Part shown: piece after piece, positions 884-6,985 of the stretch
Numbering within the stretch: position 1 is the first letter of the stretch
How the letters are laid out: each line of letters begins with the position of its first letter
Made by a program: the position numbers and the translations under genes
The notes under the pieces: model-generated
Seen by the model: the letters and a program-made list of their open reading frames with translations, nothing else
The model's database searches: none
What the model was told of the DNA's origin: nothing
IMG/VR virus record: IMGVR_UViG_2698536401_000005
Reading direction: 5' to 3' (one strand)
Source: a virus
Lineage: Duplodnaviria; Heunggongvirae; Uroviricota; Caudoviricetes
Length of the DNA stretch: 7,154 nt

Positions 884-1155
884 GTATTCGTATCGAAATT
901 GGCGAACGTTATGTTGTTACCAGTGACAGCTTTCAGTTTATTCTCCACGAGAAAAAGAGAGCGGAAAGCGGTAAAAACGCCGGTCAGGAATGGCTGGCGG
1001 TGGTTGGTTATTACCCGAAATTAAGCCAGCTCGTTTCCGGCCTGATGCATCACGATATTCTGACCGGAAGCGCAAAATCTTTTGCCGATTTAAACGCGCA
1101 GGTTGAGCAACTCAGCAGGCGTTGTTCAGAGGCTTTTGGCTCATATGGACGTTAA
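880..1155 (+). CDS. Small early-operon hypothetical protein (91 aa) immediately upstream of gene A
   Basis: ATG at 880 overlaps the upstream stop (ATGA); stop TAA at 1153-1155 overlaps the start region of the long replication ORF. No motif recognised. Confidence 0.5.
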   Translation: MSIRIEIGERYVVTSDSFQFILHEKKRAESGKNAGQEWLAVVGYYPKLSQLVSGLMHHDILTGSAKSFADLNAQVEQLSRRCSEAFGSYGR

Positions 1156-3235
1156 AGCCTCCGGGCGTTTTGTCCCTCCGTCAGCATTTGCCGCAGGCAC
1201 CGGTAAGGCGTTTACCGGTGCTTATGCATGGAACGCGCCACGCGAGGCTGTCGGGCGCGAAAGACCTCTTACACGTGACGAGATGCGTCAGGTGCAAGGT
1301 GTTTTATCCACGATTAATCGCCTGCCTTATTTTTTGCGCTCGCTGTTTACTTCACGCTATGACTACATCCGGCGCAATAAAAGCCCGGTGCACGGGTTTT
1401 ATTTCCTCACATCCACTTTTCAGCGTCGTTTATGGCCGCGCATTGAGCGCGTGAATCAGCGCCATGAAATGAACACCGACGCGTCGTTGCTGTTTCTGGC
1501 AGAGCGCGACCAGTATGCGCGCCTGCCGGGGATGAATGACAAGGAGCTGAAAAAGTTTGCCGCCCGTATCTCATCACAGCTTTTCATGATGTATGAGGAA
1601 CTCTGCGATGCCTGGGTGGATGCGCATGGCGANNNNNNNNNNNNNNNNNNNNNNNNNNNNNNNNNNNNNNNNNNNNNNNNNNNNNNNNNNNNNNNNNNNN
1701 NNNNNNNNNNNNNNNNNNNNNNNNNNNNNNNNNNNNNNNNNNNNNNNNNNNNNNNNTTTCTTAAATCGTGTGACCTTGAAAACAGGGAAACCGGCGAACG
1801 CATCGACCTTATCAGTAAGGTGATGGGCAGTATTTCTAATCCTGAAATTCGCCGGATGGAGCTGATGAACACCATTGCCGGTATTGAGCGTTACGCCGCC
1901 GCAGAGGGTGATGTGGGGATGTTTATCACGCTGACCGCGCCGTCAAAGTATCACCCGACTCGTCAGGTCAGAAAAGGCGAAAGTAAAACCGTTCAGCTTA
2001 ATCACGGCTGGAACGATGAGGCATTTAATCCAAAGGATGCGCAGCGTTATCTCTGCCGCATCTGGAGCCTGATGCGCACGGCATTCAAGGATAATGATTT
2101 ACAGGTCTACGGTTTGCGTGTCGTCGAGCCACACCACGACGGAACGCCGCACTGGCATATGATGCTTTTTTGTAATCCACGCCAGCGTAACCAGATTATC
2201 GAAATCATGCGTCGCTATGCGCTCAAAGAGGATGGTGACGAAAGAGGAGCCGCGCGAAACCGTTTTCAGGCAAAACACCTTAACCGGGGCGGTGCTGCGG
2301 GATATATCGCAAAATACATCTCAAAAAATATCGACGGCTATGCACTGGATGGTCAGCTCGATAACGATACCGGCAGGCCGCTGAAAGACACTGCAGCGGC
2401 TGTTACCGCATGGGCGTCAACGTGGCGCATCCCGCAATTTAAAACGGTTGGTCTGCCGACAATGGGGGCTTACCGTGAACTACGCAAATTGCCTCGCGGC
2501 GTCAGCATTGCTGATGAGTTTGACGAGCGCGTCGAGGCTGCACGCGCCGCTGCAGACAGTGGTGATTTTGCGTTGTATATCAGCGCGCAGGGCGGGGCAA
2601 ATGTCCCGCGCGATTGTCAGACTGTCAGGGTCGCCCGTAGCCCGTCGGATGACGTTAACGAGTACGAGGAAGAAGTCGAGAGAGTGGTCGGCATTTACGC
2701 GCCGCATCTCGGCGCGCGTCATATTCATATCACCAGAACGACGGACTGGCGCATTGTGCCGAAAGTGCCGGTCGTTGAGCCTTTGACTTTAAAAAGCGGC
2801 ATCGCCGCGCCTCGGAGTCCTGTCAATAACTGTGGAAAGCTCACCGGCGGTAATACTTCGTTACCGGCTCCCACGCCTTCTGAACACGCCGCAGCCGTGC
2901 TTAATCTGGCTGATGACGGTGTTATCGAATGGAATGACCCGGATGTCGTGAGGGCGCTCAGGGGCGCATTAAAACACGGGCTGAGAACGCCAAATCGTCA
3001 ACAAAGAAACGGAAGCCCGTTAAAACCGCATGAAATTGCACCATCGGCCAGACTGAGCCGGTCTGAACGATTGCAAATCACCCGTATCCGCGTTGACCTT
3101 GCTCAGAACGGTATCAGGCCGCAGCGATGGGAGCTTGAGGCGCTGGCGCGTGGCGCGACCGTAAATTATGACGGGAAAAAATTCACGTATCCGGTCGCTG
3201 ATGAGTGGCCGGGATTCTGGCATCAATTTGAGTAA
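1145..3235 (+). CDS. A: Rolling-circle replication initiation endonuclease, P2 gpA family (HUH superfamily); interrupted by an N-run
   Basis: Long ORF with an H-W-H (HUH) metal-binding motif at nt 2150-2158 (GTPHWHMMLF) and a paired-tyrosine motif YIAKYISK (Y at 2303-2305 and 2315-2317), the Y-x3-Y arrangement of phiX174/P2 A-type initiators. First ATG is at 1145; the ORF track's start at 1103 is a TTG. Stop TAA at 3233-3235. The frame is preserved across the N-run. Confidence 0.88.
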   Translation: MDVKASGRFVPPSAFAAGTGKAFTGAYAWNAPREAVGRERPLTRDEMRQVQGVLSTINRLPYFLRSLFTSRYDYIRRNKSPVHGFYFLTSTFQRRLWPRIERVNQRHEMNTDASLLFLAERDQYARLPGMNDKELKKFAARISSQLFMMYEELCDAWVDAHGXXXXXXXXXXXXXXXXXXXXXXXXXXXXXXXXXXXXXXXXXXFLKSCDLENRETGERIDLISKVMGSISNPEIRRMELMNTIAGIERYAAAEGDVGMFITLTAPSKYHPTRQVRKGESKTVQLNHGWNDEAFNPKDAQRYLCRIWSLMRTAFKDNDLQVYGLRVVEPHHDGTPHWHMMLFCNPRQRNQIIEIMRRYALKEDGDERGAARNRFQAKHLNRGGAAGYIAKYISKNIDGYALDGQLDNDTGRPLKDTAAAVTAWASTWRIPQFKTVGLPTMGAYRELRKLPRGVSIADEFDERVEAARAAADSGDFALYISAQGGANVPRDCQTVRVARSPSDDVNEYEEEVERVVGIYAPHLGARHIHITRTTDWRIVPKVPVVEPLTLKSGIAAPRSPVNNCGKLTGGNTSLPAPTPSEHAAAVLNLADDGVIEWNDPDVVRALRGALKHGLRTPNRQQRNGSPLKPHEIAPSARLSRSERLQITRIRVDLAQNGIRPQRWELEALARGATVNYDGKKFTYPVADEWPGFWHQFE
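1633..1756. other. Run of 124 N (masked or unsequenced bases) inside gene A
   Basis: Literal n characters in the sequence. The A reading frame stays open and in register on both sides. Confidence 0.99.
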
Positions 3236-3325
3236 TGATCTCATCTATACAGTATTAAGCAGTTTTGACTGTAATTGATTGTTTTTTATATGGTTGCATG
3301 CATTAAATCTACGTCAATATCATTA

Positions 3326-3334
3326 TGTTATAAT
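3326..3334 (+). promoter_or_regulatory. Candidate extended -10 promoter element (TGtTATAAT) for the cargo genes
   Basis: TG at 3326-3327 and a perfect TATAAT at 3329-3334, in a very AT-rich intergenic stretch (3236-3362) about 30 nt upstream of the DUF2158-like gene's ATG. A TTGACT hexamer also lies at 3265-3270, possibly part of a second promoter. Sequence pattern only. Confidence 0.4.
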
Positions 3335-3362
3335 GCATTACTTAAAAATGTTGGAGACAAAA

Positions 3363-3554
3363 ATGTTAAAGCCTGCAGATGTTGTTTGTTTGAAAAGCGG
3401 TGGATTTAAAATGACTGTATCTGACTCTACTGAGACTCATGCTAAATGTATTTGGCATGATAAAGAAGGAGTTTTGCACGAGGAGTCATTCTCCATTGAT
3501 TTACTGGAAATAGCAGAGAGTAAAAGTGGTATGCTGTGTCGTCCACGTAAGTGA
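3363..3554 (+). CDS. Small protein (63 aa) resembling the DUF2158/YodC-like family
   Basis: GGAG at 3352-3355 sits 7 nt upstream of ATG 3363. The N-terminal pattern 'KPADVVCLKSGGFKMTV' resembles the conserved G-D-x-V-x-LKSGGP-x-MTV signature I recall for DUF2158 proteins. The ORF track's start at 3279 lacks an RBS and is probably too far upstream. Confidence 0.55.
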   Translation: MLKPADVVCLKSGGFKMTVSDSTETHAKCIWHDKEGVLHEESFSIDLLEIAESKSGMLCRPRK

Positions 3555-3581
3555 ATCACAATAAAATTCACGGGGGAAAGT

Positions 3582-4262
3582 ATGAAACAATACAGCGAAT
3601 TAGAAAACAATGTTAAGAGATTCATTGTTGAGCATGAAAAAGGGATTTCTATTGATGATATTCATCATAAGTTCCGGATGAAGGATGGTCAGAATCGCAA
3701 GATGGCAGATTATCTTATTGATAATAAAAAGATAATTTTGGAGATGAAAAGTCTTTTTTCTGACAGGGTCAAGAATGTCAATGATAAATTGAATGAGTTG
3801 GTTAAAACTGATAGTTGGCTTGCAAAAAACTGGCATGGTGCTATTCATTTAGAAGAGTTGATAAAAAGACACCCAGACTCAAAGCGATTTAGAAATGATA
3901 TAATGAACTTTGCTTATGAAAATATTAAAACAAAGGTAGTTAAAGAAGCTAATAAGCAAATAAATGCAACAAAGGATGTTTTGGGTTTAAATGACTCGAT
4001 TGGCGGATTGATTTTGTTAAATGATAATGTCTTTTCACATGAGTTTAATTATTTGTCAGATGAAATATTATATTTGCTAGGCACAAAGAGATATTCGAGT
4101 GTTGAGTTTGTGGTTTATATTGCAAAATTGATTGATAAACAGGTTGATGTTTGTGTGCTACTTGACAGTCAATCTAAAAATAAAAATTATATTGAATGGT
4201 ATATGAATAATGTTTTTTTGTTGAACTGGGCGTCTTTTAATAAATATGCAATAAAGATGTAG
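3582..4262 (+). CDS. Unrecognised 226-aa protein, AT-rich cargo gene (candidate defence-associated)
   Basis: ATG at 3582 with GGGGGAAAG just upstream; lies 27 nt after the DUF2158-like gene, so probably co-transcribed. Very low GC and Lys/Asn/Ile-rich composition unlike the phage backbone. No catalytic motif recognised. Confidence 0.6.
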   Translation: MKQYSELENNVKRFIVEHEKGISIDDIHHKFRMKDGQNRKMADYLIDNKKIILEMKSLFSDRVKNVNDKLNELVKTDSWLAKNWHGAIHLEELIKRHPDSKRFRNDIMNFAYENIKTKVVKEANKQINATKDVLGLNDSIGGLILLNDNVFSHEFNYLSDEILYLLGTKRYSSVEFVVYIAKLIDKQVDVCVLLDSQSKNKNYIEWYMNNVFLLNWASFNKYAIKM

Positions 4263-4511
4263 TGGTGTGGATGGATATGAAATGAGTCAACCAAGATGCA
4301 CCTTGGTCAGTAATCTCATGTGAGATACCACATATAACACCAAAAGTGTCAGGTTGATGGCCATTGTTCACCGTTTACAGCAGATTATGGTCAACGAAAA
4401 TCTGACGCCCGATGAGCTAGTCGGGTGTGCCGAAATAGTCAGGGATAATTACGAACAGCTTAACTATATCGGTCAGTCCAGCCTTGCGCCGCCACCACGC
4501 AGACGATAGAG

Positions 4512-4554
4512 AACCCCGCCAGCAATGAAACATGTTTTCAGTGCTGGCGGGGTT
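4512..4554. terminator. Near-perfect 43-bp palindromic hairpin between convergent genes (candidate bidirectional terminator)
   Basis: Arms aaccccgccagca (4512-4524) and tgctggcggggtt (4542-4554) are exact reverse complements (13 bp). The loop contains a second palindrome aaacatgttt (4528-4537). It lies ~30 nt past the stop of the minus-strand 313-aa gene and directly after the small plus-strand ORF ending at 4509. No clean U-tract on the + side; a pyrimidine-rich tract follows on the - side. Confidence 0.5.
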
Positions 4555-4582
4555 GAACAACGAACGAAGTGAGGCGTTAGCA

Positions 4583-5524
4583 TTAAGTTAATTTTAATGA
4601 ATGGTACTCTCGTGAGTTGACCGAAGATTTGAGATAACCGCAATCATTAACCGACAGTATTGCCGCTAATAGGCGACAAACGAGTTTCTGCATTTGCAGT
4701 AATATATCGTTACCATATTGATTGTTGTTAACACTGGAAAAACCAAGTGGTTGGCCAAAAAAAATAGCCTCATGAAAATTATCATTGCGGATGCCAGAAA
4801 TGTTTTTTTTGCCTGATACCCATGTGGGGATTGATAACCCATAAATTCTGCACATCCACTTTAATCGCTTGGAATGATTTGGCTGGGTTTTATCAGGAGC
4901 CTTGTCATGCTCAGCCCACGATAAAGCAAAGCAACCATCAAGTGCCATGTAAAGGTACTGGAATTTTTCAAAAGGAAGGTATTGTGGGTTTTGAGATAAG
5001 AATAGCGCATGCACCACTGCCGCAATTCTTTTGGGGGAGTGCGCATCCTTTTGTTTGTTAGTTATATAATTAAGAGCCAGTTCTATGACTTCTTTTTCAG
5101 AGCATCCAACGAGAATAAAATCGGTTAACTTAGTGGGCTTGATAGTGGTTGCATCAAGAAAACCAGCGTCAGTGGTTGTCAATCTTATACCCTTGAAAAA
5201 AGAGAGGCACCACACAACAAAGTTGAGAGTTTCTAACGAGGATGTGTTTTTTAATTTTAGTGTGTGCGTTTTGGGCATGCCGAATACTCGGTAACTATAA
5301 GGCATTGTGCATGAGTCACCATTAAGGTTATATACCTTTCGATTCCCAGGGTATATCCAACCATTAACAACGTTTTTATCATTGTTAATACGTTCCACTT
5401 TCTCAATAAGACCGGGTAAAGTACGCAAAGAAAATTGTTCAGTCTCAATGTTAACTTCTACTGGATAGTATCCAAACTCCGAAATAATCTCATTTGGTTG
5501 CTGTTCGTCAACTTCGCCTTGCAT
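4583..5524 (-). CDS. Unrecognised 313-aa protein with a C-terminal R-N-x3-H (HEPN-like) motif; candidate abortive-infection/defence effector
   Basis: ATG at 5524-5522 (minus strand) preceded by GGAGAAAG; stop at 4585-4583. AT-rich like the other cargo genes. Residues R246-N-D-N-F-H251 (nt 4772-4789) fit the HEPN RNase signature R-[N/Q/H]-x3-H within a predicted helical C-terminal half. The family call rests on this single motif plus context. Confidence 0.6.
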   Translation of the reverse strand: MQGEVDEQQPNEIISEFGYYPVEVNIETEQFSLRTLPGLIEKVERINNDKNVVNGWIYPGNRKVYNLNGDSCTMPYSYRVFGMPKTHTLKLKNTSSLETLNFVVWCLSFFKGIRLTTTDAGFLDATTIKPTKLTDFILVGCSEKEVIELALNYITNKQKDAHSPKRIAAVVHALFLSQNPQYLPFEKFQYLYMALDGCFALSWAEHDKAPDKTQPNHSKRLKWMCRIYGLSIPTWVSGKKNISGIRNDNFHEAIFFGQPLGFSSVNNNQYGNDILLQMQKLVCRLLAAILSVNDCGYLKSSVNSREYHSLKLT

Positions 5525-5762
5525 AACTTTCTCCGTTCAAAAACAGGCACGATAATTCTCGTAAGCCTATCATGTTCGCAAAGTATCCATACCTGTGGAT
5601 TTTGTAAATTTAAGTTGGTTTGTCATTAAATAAGCCGTTGCATGCAACAAGTGAATGTTTTTGCATGCGTCGGGGATGTCCGTTCAGGCTGCGTGCGGTC
5701 AGGACTGGTGCGGATCCATAGTATCTATGCAACTGCATTAAAACCGCCCCATGAAGCGGGCG

Positions 5763-5781
5763 GGCGAGGCGGGGAAAGCAC
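5763..5781 (+). other. cos site: 19-nt cohesive-end sequence of P2-type phages (GGCGAGGCGGGGAAAGCAC)
   Basis: Exact 19/19 match to the P2 cohesive-end sequence as I recall it. It sits in a GC-rich non-coding stretch between the cargo island and the end of portal gene Q, which is where cos lies in P2. Confidence 0.7.
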
Positions 5782-5923: not shown

Positions 5924-5945
5924 AAAAAAGCCGCCCGCAGGCGGC
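5924..5945 (-). terminator. Candidate intrinsic terminator downstream of portal gene Q
   Basis: On the minus strand: GC stem gccgcc/ggcggc (5930-5935 and 5940-5945) with loop cgca, followed by a 6-U tract (plus-strand A-run 5924-5929), beginning 6 nt after the Q stop codon. Confidence 0.5.
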
Positions 5946-5950
5946 GATGT

Positions 5951-6985
5951 TCAGCCGTTGTCAGTGTCCAGTGAGTAGTTTTTAAAGCGGATGACCTCCT
6001 GACCGAGCCAGCCGTTTATTTCCCGAATCCTGTCCTGTAACGGGATAAGCTCATTGCGGACAAAGACCTTTGCCACTTTCTCAATATCACCCAGCGACCC
6101 GACGTTCTCCGGCTTGCCGCCCATCAACTGAAAGGGGATGCGGTGCGCGTCCAGCAGGTCAGCGGCGCTGGCTTTTTTGATATTAAAAAAATCGTCCTTC
6201 GTCGCCACTTCACTGAGCGGGATAATTTTAATGCCGTCGGCTTTCCCCTGTGGTGCATAGAGAAACAGATTTTTAAAGTTGTTGCGGCCTTTCGACTTCA
6301 CCATGTTTTCGCGGAGCATTTCGATATCGTTGCGATCCTGCACGGCATCAGTGACGTACATGATGTATCCGGCATGTGCGCCGTTTTCGTAATACTTGCG
6401 GCGGAACAGCGTGGCCGACTCATTCAGCCAGGCAGAGTTAAGGGCGCTGAGATATTCCGGCAGGCCGTACAGCTCCTGATTAATATCCGGCTCCAGCAGG
6501 TGAAACACGGAGCCGGGCGCGAAGGCTGTCGGCTCGTTGAAGGACGGCACCCACCAGTAAATATCCTCTTCCACACCACGGCGGGTATATTTTTCCGGTG
6601 AGGTTTCCAGTCTGATGACCTTACCGGTGGTGCTGTAACGCTTTTCCAGAAATGCATTACCAAATACCAGAAAATCCAGCACAAAGCGGCTGAAATCCTG
6701 CTGGGAAAGCCATGGATGCGGGATAAATGTCGAGGCCAGAATATTACGTTTGACGTAAATCGGTGAGCTGTGATGCACGGCAGCACGCAGGCTTTTTGCC
6801 AGACCGGTAAAGCTGACCGGCGGCTCATACCATCTGCCGTTACTGATGCATTCGACGTAATCCAGAATGTCACGGCGGTCGAGCACCGGCACCGGCTCAC
6901 CAAAGGTGAATGCCTCCATTTTCGGGGCGCTGGCAGTCATTTTTTTTGCCGCAGGTTGCGGTGTTTTCCCTTTTTTCTTGCTCAT
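5951..6985 (-). CDS. Q: Phage portal protein, P2 gpQ family (344 aa)
   Basis: 344-aa ORF, the same length as P2 gpQ, positioned next to cos and immediately downstream of the terminase gene on the same strand. Its start ATG (6985-6983) overlaps the upstream stop as TGATG. Identification is by recollection of the family and by synteny. Confidence 0.85.
   Translation of the reverse strand: MSKKKGKTPQPAAKKMTASAPKMEAFTFGEPVPVLDRRDILDYVECISNGRWYEPPVSFTGLAKSLRAAVHHSSPIYVKRNILASTFIPHPWLSQQDFSRFVLDFLVFGNAFLEKRYSTTGKVIRLETSPEKYTRRGVEEDIYWWVPSFNEPTAFAPGSVFHLLEPDINQELYGLPEYLSALNSAWLNESATLFRRKYYENGAHAGYIMYVTDAVQDRNDIEMLRENMVKSKGRNNFKNLFLYAPQGKADGIKIIPLSEVATKDDFFNIKKASAADLLDAHRIPFQLMGGKPENVGSLGDIEKVAKVFVRNELIPLQDRIREINGWLGQEVIRFKNYSLDTDNG

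Follow-up and report, generated by a model that had tools for sequence, protein, structure and literature searches.

In P2-like phages, one of the best-known hotspots for anti-phage defence genes is located between replication gene A and cos, and the mechanism by which these genes are exchanged and expressed is open (Rousset et al. 2022, PMC9122126). The 7,154-nucleotide stretch of DNA analysed here as a whole (IMG/VR record IMGVR_UViG_2698536401_000005, hereafter the window) is the right end of such a phage or prophage (Peduovirus). In its hotspot, a GC-richer spacer with a 50-codon open reading frame (ORF) and a palindrome is located between two AT-rich, convergent cargo genes, ORF226 and ORF313, which raises the question of where this spacer comes from and what it does. 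An earlier note on the same DNA had pointed out spacer, ORF and palindrome, and all three are present at the positions given in Table 1. Two components are distinguished in the following, the truncated copy of a small phage gene and, directly behind it, a 72-nt element composed of a hairpin (hairpin I) and a conserved tail.

Base composition, in agreement with the earlier note, and homology to P2-like phages both set the spacer apart from the AT-rich cargo. The GC content is 0.48–0.50 in intervals covering positions 4301–4600, compared to 0.28–0.32 in ORF226 and 0.37–0.41 in ORF313. Homology to other P2-like phages begins at about 4318–4322, and positions 4322–4580 share 85–89% identity with a segment found in many of them (Wphi, P22H4, P24A7b, YpM46 and others), where it is located downstream of gene A and small accessory ORFs and upstream of variable cargo. 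With phages bearing other cargo, the homology ends exactly after GAGGCGTTAG (position 4580 of the window). The remaining left part of the spacer is matched only by P2-EC67 and 720R8, both of which carry ORF226; it includes a small palindrome at 4290–4307 with contiguous arms of 9 nt each (ACCAAGATG/CACCTTGGT). Within the compared region 3236–5600, the spacer is 99.7% identical to the 'TO region' of P2-EC67 (AM157369), a record in which ORF73, ORF226 and ORF313 are annotated and the spacer is left blank. The Yersinia phage YpM46 encodes the same ORF313 (83% amino acid identity), while on the left side a 150-aa ORF and a full-length small ORF replace the DUF2158 ORF and ORF226. Because YpM46 shares ORF313 but not the left genes, the left and right AT-rich blocks were gained in separate events, as had been proposed. 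Judged from these comparisons, the spacer is conserved P2/186 backbone DNA caught between two independently gained cargo blocks. The suggestion that it is a remnant of an ancestral gene holds insofar as a conserved backbone gene is involved, but not for the old- or tin-like identity put forward: BLAST against P2-like phages matched the spacer to a known phage segment and not to the 3′ end of old or tin. A relic of either gene was rejected, since the segment consists of the 3′ two-thirds of a phrog_11386 gene and the structured element. In P2 itself, orf91 abuts tin with a gap of 38 nt and no trace of the segment.

The palindrome belongs to a structured element found across the family. By BLAST, positions 4512–4581 alone are conserved in phage 186 (right after orf97), in PSP3 and in Klebsiella and Erwinia phages. 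Hairpin I begins 2 nt past the stop codon of the ORF, has a single A.G mismatch at pair 14 and the loop CAUGU, and reaches a minimum free energy (MFE) of −33.3 kcal/mol in the window (z = −5.4; 0 of 200 shuffled sequences folded as well). Searching IMG/VR for the tail pattern TTGAACAACGA-N7-GAGGCGTTAG identified at least 120 contigs, all of P2/186 type. The variant set gathered with this exact pattern comprises 128 instances, 103 of them distinct, and in 103 of 103 a 19-pair hairpin is found directly 5′ of the tail, with a loop of mostly 5 nt (consensus CUNGY). The stem sequences are very different among these variants, and hairpin I is only about 50% identical between types next to the tail. 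Changes on both sides were counted for 16 of the 19 pairs (336 cells); 92.5% of the cells are paired, compared to 30–40% with slid partners, and none of 500 shuffles reached the observed covariation score. Mismatches recur at two places, at pair 4, where G.G is the usual combination, and frequently at pair 14.

The fold is strand-specific. Read in the sense of the + strand, the stems contain 181 G.U against 26 A.C combinations, and the mean MFE is −23.9 kcal/mol on the + strand compared to −17.0 on the − strand, a difference of about 7 kcal/mol. Selection has therefore acted on a single-stranded molecule of the + strand rather than on a duplex palindrome. A protein-binding palindrome in double-stranded DNA, offered in the earlier note as an alternative, is contradicted by the free variation of the stem with compensation and by the strong excess of G.U over A.C. 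Such an operator-like site would call for a conserved half-site, symmetric on both strands, and was rejected on these grounds.

Among the IMG/VR loci listed with enough flanking sequence, the element is always located between the homologues of gene A and the portal gene, on the strand of A. The gene A products of these loci share 31–99% amino acid identity with that of the window and the portal proteins 58–99%, while the distance from element to portal gene ranges from 364 to 4553 bp. A sample independent of the search pattern was obtained from 80 portal-anchored prophage loci of GTDB species, scanned with a covariance model (R1). The element was detected in 17 of them, corresponding to about 20% of P2-family prophages, and was absent from 63. 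All 17 positives are Enterobacterales by record title, save one labelled Chryseobacterium. An alternative 19-bp hairpin with a different tail was found in none of the 63 loci lacking the element, and the element is also absent from P2 and the satellite P4. Among complete E. coli genomes, the element is present in at least 553 of 5426 (lower bound from blastn with the 261-nt module); a P2-type portal gene was found in 3293 of these genomes.

Nucleotide-level conservation of the tail extends to phages with A proteins of only 31–47% identity, and in the portal-anchored sample, where it was not preset, most tails have 0–4 substitutions, with a few degenerate copies that carry more or are shortened. 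The tail contains a second, small hairpin (hairpin II), which in the family consists of C-G, tandem G.A/A.G, G-C and C-G pairs and a free triloop. Hairpin II is under structural selection, also in the window: its two inner pairs covary, the window has A-U instead of G-C, and in two loci (L186 and L139) the G.A/A.G pairs are converted to Watson-Crick pairs. More than 20 near-invariant tail positions suggest a sequence-specific partner. This could be a protein, or else the loop of hairpin I, since most variants have a loop complementary to GCGAG of the tail. The loop (CUNGY) is fully complementary to this motif in 39 of 87 loops and complementary at four-fifths of the positions in 36 of 87. A loop-tail pseudoknot, a reading of low weight, would explain the fixed stem length; the invariant tail itself yields no covariation. 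No complementarity of the tail was found to other parts of the window, to the right ends of P2 and 186 or to satellite P4.

Upstream of the element, the ORF matches the profile of phrog_11386 (E = 1.9e-25; residues 1–50 against profile positions 19–69), a family which includes PSP3 gp37 and the gp92 region of Wphi. Its homologues form 187 protein clusters, are confined to Enterobacteriaceae and are mostly 67–78 aa long. The clusters are annotated as 'hypothetical' or, spuriously, as 'meiotically up-regulated 80 protein'; this RefSeq/PGAP label on the 51-aa ORF (NCBI clusters P0001, P0003 and P0004) is certainly a mis-transferred fungal name. Over the first 33 codons, 24 distinct homologues gave pS = 0.54 and pN = 0.042 (ratio 0.077), with variable third positions in 29 of the 33 codons, variable first positions in 10 and variable second positions in 6. 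The family is clearly protein-coding and under strong purifying selection. The core MAIVHRLQQIMVNENLTPxELVGCAEIVRDN (residues 19–49) is invariant in 26 aligned members, the window included. An AF2 model predicts a two-helix hairpin with pLDDT above 90 over the core, and searches with the small protein in Pfam, NCBIfam, PADLOC, PDB sequences and Foldseek recovered the PHROG family alone and no structural neighbour.

Full-length members (67–78 aa) open with MHRLPGEIPQHKTKSIKL-MAIVHRL behind a good Shine-Dalgarno (SD) sequence. In the window copy, the ATG, the SD sequence and the N-terminal ~18 residues are missing, so that the small protein suspected in the earlier note is real for the family (pN/pS 0.08) but is encoded here without its native start and first ~18 codons. 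In the window, P2-EC67 and 720R8, the cargo junction (about 4318) has taken the place of the ancestral ATG and SD sequence, and a 1-nt deletion in the 5′ remnant generates an in-frame TGA at 4321–4323. The MHRLPGEIPQHKTKSIKL extension is kept in the upstream translations of 24 homologues and is broken only in the three sequences just named. Translation of the window copy is possible only from the internal Met at 4357, which has a weak SD sequence (AGG, 3 nt ahead); the ORF caller lists the same frame from TTG 4354 as 51 aa. The ORF is thus a truncated member of a known but uncharacterised phage gene family. In Wphi (L003:3845-4263, gp92 region), the small ORF carries a 1-nt insertion (TTACCAGC) relative to all relatives, and the annotated gp92 is therefore a frameshifted hybrid; the insertion is either a sequencing error or the mark of a pseudogene.

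The missing native start would suit a spacer made of neutral leftovers, i.e. a decaying pseudogene next to a chance palindrome, as would the loss or internal deletion of the element in some lineages. In one locus (L185, ~10056, − strand), the small ORF is kept and the element is internally deleted (AACCCCGCCAG joined to GCGTTAG); in another (L168, ~8467, − strand), the small ORF is kept and a canonical terminator next to cos stands in place of the element. Such decay is nevertheless extremely improbable as an explanation. The fold z-score of −5.4 stands against it, hairpin II is maintained in the window tail by a compensatory pair, none of the 50 codons left is damaged and the invariant core is complete, and the truncated 51-aa form is present on more than 200 contigs. 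For the element, the neutral reading is already largely refuted.

The immediate neighbours of the element point to a role in a transcript. It co-occurs with small rightward accessory genes, namely DinI-like/Tum (PF06183), the small ORF and 186-type orf97. The upstream + strand stop codon is located 1–3 nt from the hairpin in the case of the DinI-like gene and the small ORF and 4–8 nt in the case of orf97. On the other side, genes of phrog_2100, UmuD-like genes and genes of phrog_16957 begin 1–3 nt past GTTAG and 8–10 nt past GAGG; the GAGG of the tail is reused as SD sequence by three unrelated downstream gene families. In other loci the cargo is reversed, sometimes with the TAA inside CTAAC as stop codon, and in Wphi it begins about 170 nt downstream of the element. 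In the shortest arrangements, of the 186 type, only a terminator and cos are found behind the element, and the cos-proximal cargo hotspot therefore opens directly behind it.

With moderate confidence, we favour the reading that the element would be an intercistronic or 3′-untranslated region (3′-UTR) module of the rightward mRNA. The + strand would fold in the early or SOS-operon message, directly after the last rightward stop codon. Hairpin I would serve as a 3′ stabiliser that protects or delimits the message ahead of it, and possibly also as a site of processing or partial termination. The tail would provide a portable translation-initiation region for cargo joined behind it, with the SD sequence partly held in hairpin II. 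In the window, where no + strand gene follows, the near-perfect hairpin probably also ends the convergent ORF313 transcript (− strand sequence after the hairpin: UUCUCUAUCG). Because starts 1–3 nt past the tail leave no room for a promoter after hairpin I, the downstream genes should be co-transcribed through the element. The tum transcript is the top-expressed RNA of the P2-like prophage BTP5 (PMC7067206), and the region is therefore transcribed in lysogens. The element is dispensable for phage core functions, which fits a local cis element; its absence from P2 and most relatives argues against an essential role in replication or packaging.

Several points weigh against the mRNA module. The folded molecule, most probably RNA, could be displaced single-stranded DNA (ssDNA) instead. 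The proposed role in stabilisation and initiation does not obviously explain the more than 20 near-invariant tail positions; the near-invariance also holds with reversed cargo (window) and with cargo about 170 nt away (Wphi). The covariation counts are raw, i.e. uncorrected for phylogeny, and the tail invariance in the large variant set is by construction, since the search pattern fixed it. Finally, in a locus of Enterobacteriaceae bacterium G50 (L141, 11640-11790, − strand), the element is located 1 nt past the stop codon of gene A; a LexA-box-like palindrome (TACTGTATGTATGTACAGCA) comes next, and behind it an 85-aa phrog_2100 gene. From this arrangement, phrog_2100 seems to be SOS-controlled alone in some phages and fused to the tail in others, and the independent LexA-box promoter fits the end of an operon better than an intercistronic position.

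The same locus, in which the A operon closes with the element and a separate promoter comes next, would also suit a bidirectional terminator or insulator, whose hairpin stops both the rightward operon and leftward cargo transcripts and so prevents antisense run-in. In the window, the site is located exactly where the convergent ORFs meet, and in other loci a reverse ORF ends no more than 80 nt away from the tail. Where a convergent ORF abuts the element, G.U pairs tend to be fewer (1.09 vs 1.8, p = 0.045; small, non-independent sample) and the fold of the − strand is more stable (p = 0.03). The (near-)perfect hairpins of the window and of Klebsiella have the same stability on either strand. 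On the − strand, the hairpin is followed by a mean of 3.9 T per 10 nt, which is only a moderately T-rich tail. Of the hallmarks of an intrinsic terminator, the G+C-rich hairpin is present (19 bp, −33 kcal/mol) but the U-tract is missing: on the + strand, 0.01 T was counted in the 10 nt after the hairpin (118 loci). A consensus scan called neither strand, and in the 186 record a canonical terminator, p95 terminator t95b, is annotated 23 nt beyond the element. Genes beginning 1–3 nt past the tail must be read through the element, and neither a fixed 19-bp stem nor an invariant 28-nt tail is a terminator feature. The G.U bias, moreover, places selection mainly on the + strand fold. Since no T follows the stem, t95b lies downstream and genes are read through, the element is most probably not an intrinsic terminator of the + strand. 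Termination in both directions, as suggested in the earlier note, is doubtful, and as the main function of the element it is rather unlikely.

The exact end of homology after GTTAG between phages with different cargo, together with unrelated genes fused at +1 to +3 and the wide range of element-portal distances, could also be read as the trace of a DNA recombination anchor. In that case the tail, with or without an ssDNA hairpin, would be the left homology arm or crossover site and the cos region the right arm; a second homologous event besides cos has been postulated for an exchange whose mechanism is unknown (Rousset et al. 2022, PMC9122126). Three phages carry two copies each: PSP3 (L007:3754-3824 and 4158-4229), L163 (10717-10787 and 10312-10383) and L148 (9806-9877 and 9409-9480). 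In these, one copy follows the DinI-like/TumB gene and the other the small ORF, the stems are unrelated and the inner tail is degenerate, and the copies bracket the small-ORF module as if each module brought its own. We nevertheless consider an anchor unlikely. Only about 20% of P2-family prophages have the element, whereas the hotspots of P2 and P4 are equally variable without it; 28 nt are marginal for RecA-type recombination, and a dedicated recombinase is not evident. Single nucleotides would not be kept invariant by second-order selection for evolvability, the covariation in hairpins I and II indicates a folded single strand with a direct function, and the features of an attC site are incomplete (see below).

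Two further possibilities, taken together, are very unlikely. The element might be a cassette-docking site, an integron-like recombination signal recognised by its single-stranded structure and acted on by an enzyme yet to be identified, with one copy per module (DinI-like, small ORF, orf97); accessory and defence genes would then join the P2/186 backbone through hairpin and tail. Alternatively, it might be a trans-acting cargo RNA, a structured 3′-UTR that would act on a host or competitor factor via the invariant tail.

Signals for initiation on ssDNA are usually built from a hairpin and a conserved tail that stays single-stranded. The element resembles this architecture, folds on the strand nicked at the origin and is always located downstream of the origin within gene A, as might be expected of a lagging-strand priming or primosome signal of rolling-circle replication, exposed on the displaced + strand about 1–2 kb past the A-protein nick. 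P2 and most relatives replicate without the element, however, and the complement of the tail resembles the nick site of P2 (CGCCTCG) but not that of other origin types, with which the tail is unchanged. Both the short distance to stop codons and the use of GAGG as an SD sequence point to mRNA. A replication signal is highly improbable.

Table 1. Features of the window, listed from left to right
Feature	Position	Strand	Remarks
Genes orf80-83	ahead of the left cargo block	+	
Replication gene A	1103-3235	+	
Left cargo block	DUF2158 ORF 3279-3554, then ORF226 3582-4262	+	AT-rich, GC 0.28-0.38
Spacer	4263-4582		bounded by the end of ORF226 (4262) and the end of ORF313 (minus strand, 4583)
3′ flank of left cargo block	4263-4317	+	AT-rich, downstream of ORF226
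Degenerate 5′ remnant of small gene	4318-4356	+	from alignment with YpM46, P2-SIAC10 and Wphi
50-codon ORF	ATG 4357 to TAG 4507-4509	+	conserved core and C-terminus of phrog_11386 protein
72-nt element	4509-4580	+	hairpin I and conserved tail
Hairpin I	4512-4554	+	arms 4512-4530 and 4536-4554, 19 nt each, 95% complementary; 5-nt loop
Tail TTGAACAACGA-ACGAAGT-GAGGCGTTAG	4553-4580	+	nearly invariant, 28 nt
Linker GAACAA	4555-4560	+	
Hairpin II	4561-4573	+	C-G, G.A, A.G, A-U, C-G; triloop GAA
SD-like GAGG	4571-4574	+	
ORF313, right cargo gene	4583-5524	−	convergent; stop codon 2 nt past tail; its mRNA would extend into the element
cos cohesive-end sequence	5763-5781	+	identical to 19-nt P2 cosR; right limit of cos-proximal hotspot
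Portal gene Q	5951-6985	−	

Of the cargo genes flanking the spacer, ORF313 is also encoded in P2-EC67 and belongs to phrog_5937, and neither ORF313 nor ORF226 had a match in Pfam, PADLOC or PDB. Given the locus, both are candidate defence genes. An R-x4-H motif (RNDNFH, about aa 246–251) in ORF313 is reminiscent of HEPN nucleases. The 91-aa ORF directly after gene A is a DUF2158 protein (E = 1.2e-7; phrog_3261); it occupies the position of P2 orf91, which belongs to a different family (DUF3850). Within gene A, masked bases (N) at about 1630–1760 interrupt the sequence and cause a block of X in the translation and an artificial GC dip to 0.2. On the right side, about 150 bp next to cos (5630–5781) are conserved with phage 186, and terminator-like hairpins are located next to cos (5744–5763) and after the portal gene (5930–5945).

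The same element, with identical tail and in the same position before cos, is found in coliphage 186 between orf97 and t95b (30344–30413). PSP3, Wphi and Klebsiella phage ST147-VIM1phi7.1 have counterparts of this segment after their last rightward accessory gene. The 186 copy differs in that no cargo is located behind it and in its hairpin, which includes one G.G mismatch and three G.U pairs, compared to the near-perfect hairpin of the window. The element is unannotated in the records of these four phages and of P2-EC67, Rfam gave no match at E ≤ 1 with the window and five related loci, and the hotspot literature compared (e.g. PMC9122126) does not mention it, while the 2006 paper on P2-EC67 (Odegrip et al.) may comment on it. 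It has apparently not been described before and is a candidate for a new RNA family. As a discrete, strongly constrained element of 72 nt at the left edge of the variable region in about one-fifth of P2-family prophages, it offers a concrete target for asking how cargo is expressed, insulated from phage operons or swapped, and can serve in practice as a landmark when the limits of cargo in P2-like prophages are to be set.

Several known signals were considered and rejected. None of Chi, LexA box, DnaA box, IHF, boxA/boxB, K-turn, SECIS and gene-60-type bypass appears to fit the conserved positions. The likeness to the P2 A-protein nick site is limited to CGCCTCG, a flank specific to the P2-type origin, which the element carries on the opposite strand; the conserved origin core CTCGGAGTYCTGTCAATAAC is absent and the likeness is coincidental. 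A sigma-70 promoter in the tail (TTGAAC ... TAGNNT) would, by inspection, have a 19-nt spacer and a −10 box that is not conserved. The RfaH ops sequence (GGCGGTAGCGTG) is more similar: the 3′ end of the tail, GGCGTTAG (4573–4580), matches 7 of 8 core positions and, like ops, is found on the non-template strand ahead of AT-rich genes of horizontal origin, and two tails (L142 and L178) read the exact ops core GGCGGTAG. It was rejected because the invariant G5 is T here and the pause-site T11/G12 are not conserved. T at ops position 5 was found in 103 of 103 variants, in which GTTAG is fixed by the search pattern, and in all but two of the unbiased tails; past GTTAG the sequence varies. In ops itself, few mutations do more damage than G5A and T11G (PMC5995543).

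Integron attC sites share with the element a hairpin at the 3′ end of a module, an AAC...GTT base and the possibility that two copies bracket a small module. The 3′ flank GTTGAAC fits the R′ consensus GTTRRRY. The 5′ flank (e.g. AGAGAAC or AAGAAAC), in contrast, neither fits RYYYAAC nor pairs with GAAC, the fold favours the coding (top) instead of the bottom strand, and the length is fixed instead of variable. There are at most two copies per locus, flanked by gene A, accessory ORFs, cargo and the portal gene, and no IntI or array was seen, although no systematic integrase search was made. An attC identity was therefore rejected.

In the mRNA module favoured here, hairpin I would be comparable to RNase III sites or REP-type stabilisers. 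RNase III sites of phage early mRNAs, such as T7 R0.3-R1.3 and lambda sib, are long irregular hairpins (~20 bp, about two turns of double-stranded RNA) between or after phage genes, at which cistrons are separated and a stem is left to protect the 3′ end. Hairpin I has 19 bp, and its recurrent mismatches at pairs 4 and 14 are reminiscent of such sites. The element differs in lacking the internal-loop architecture of the T7 type, and its conserved tail is not explained by this comparison. REP/BIME elements (e.g. malE-malF) are mRNA-stabilising hairpins of intercistronic regions or 3′-UTRs. They occur in hundreds of copies per genome, compared to one or two per phage, no similarity of the element to the REP consensus is evident, and they have no counterpart of the fixed 19-bp length and of the invariant tail with its mini-hairpin. 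Common to both are an imperfect palindrome directly past a stop codon in or at the end of an operon, the absence of a U-tract and a conserved structure.

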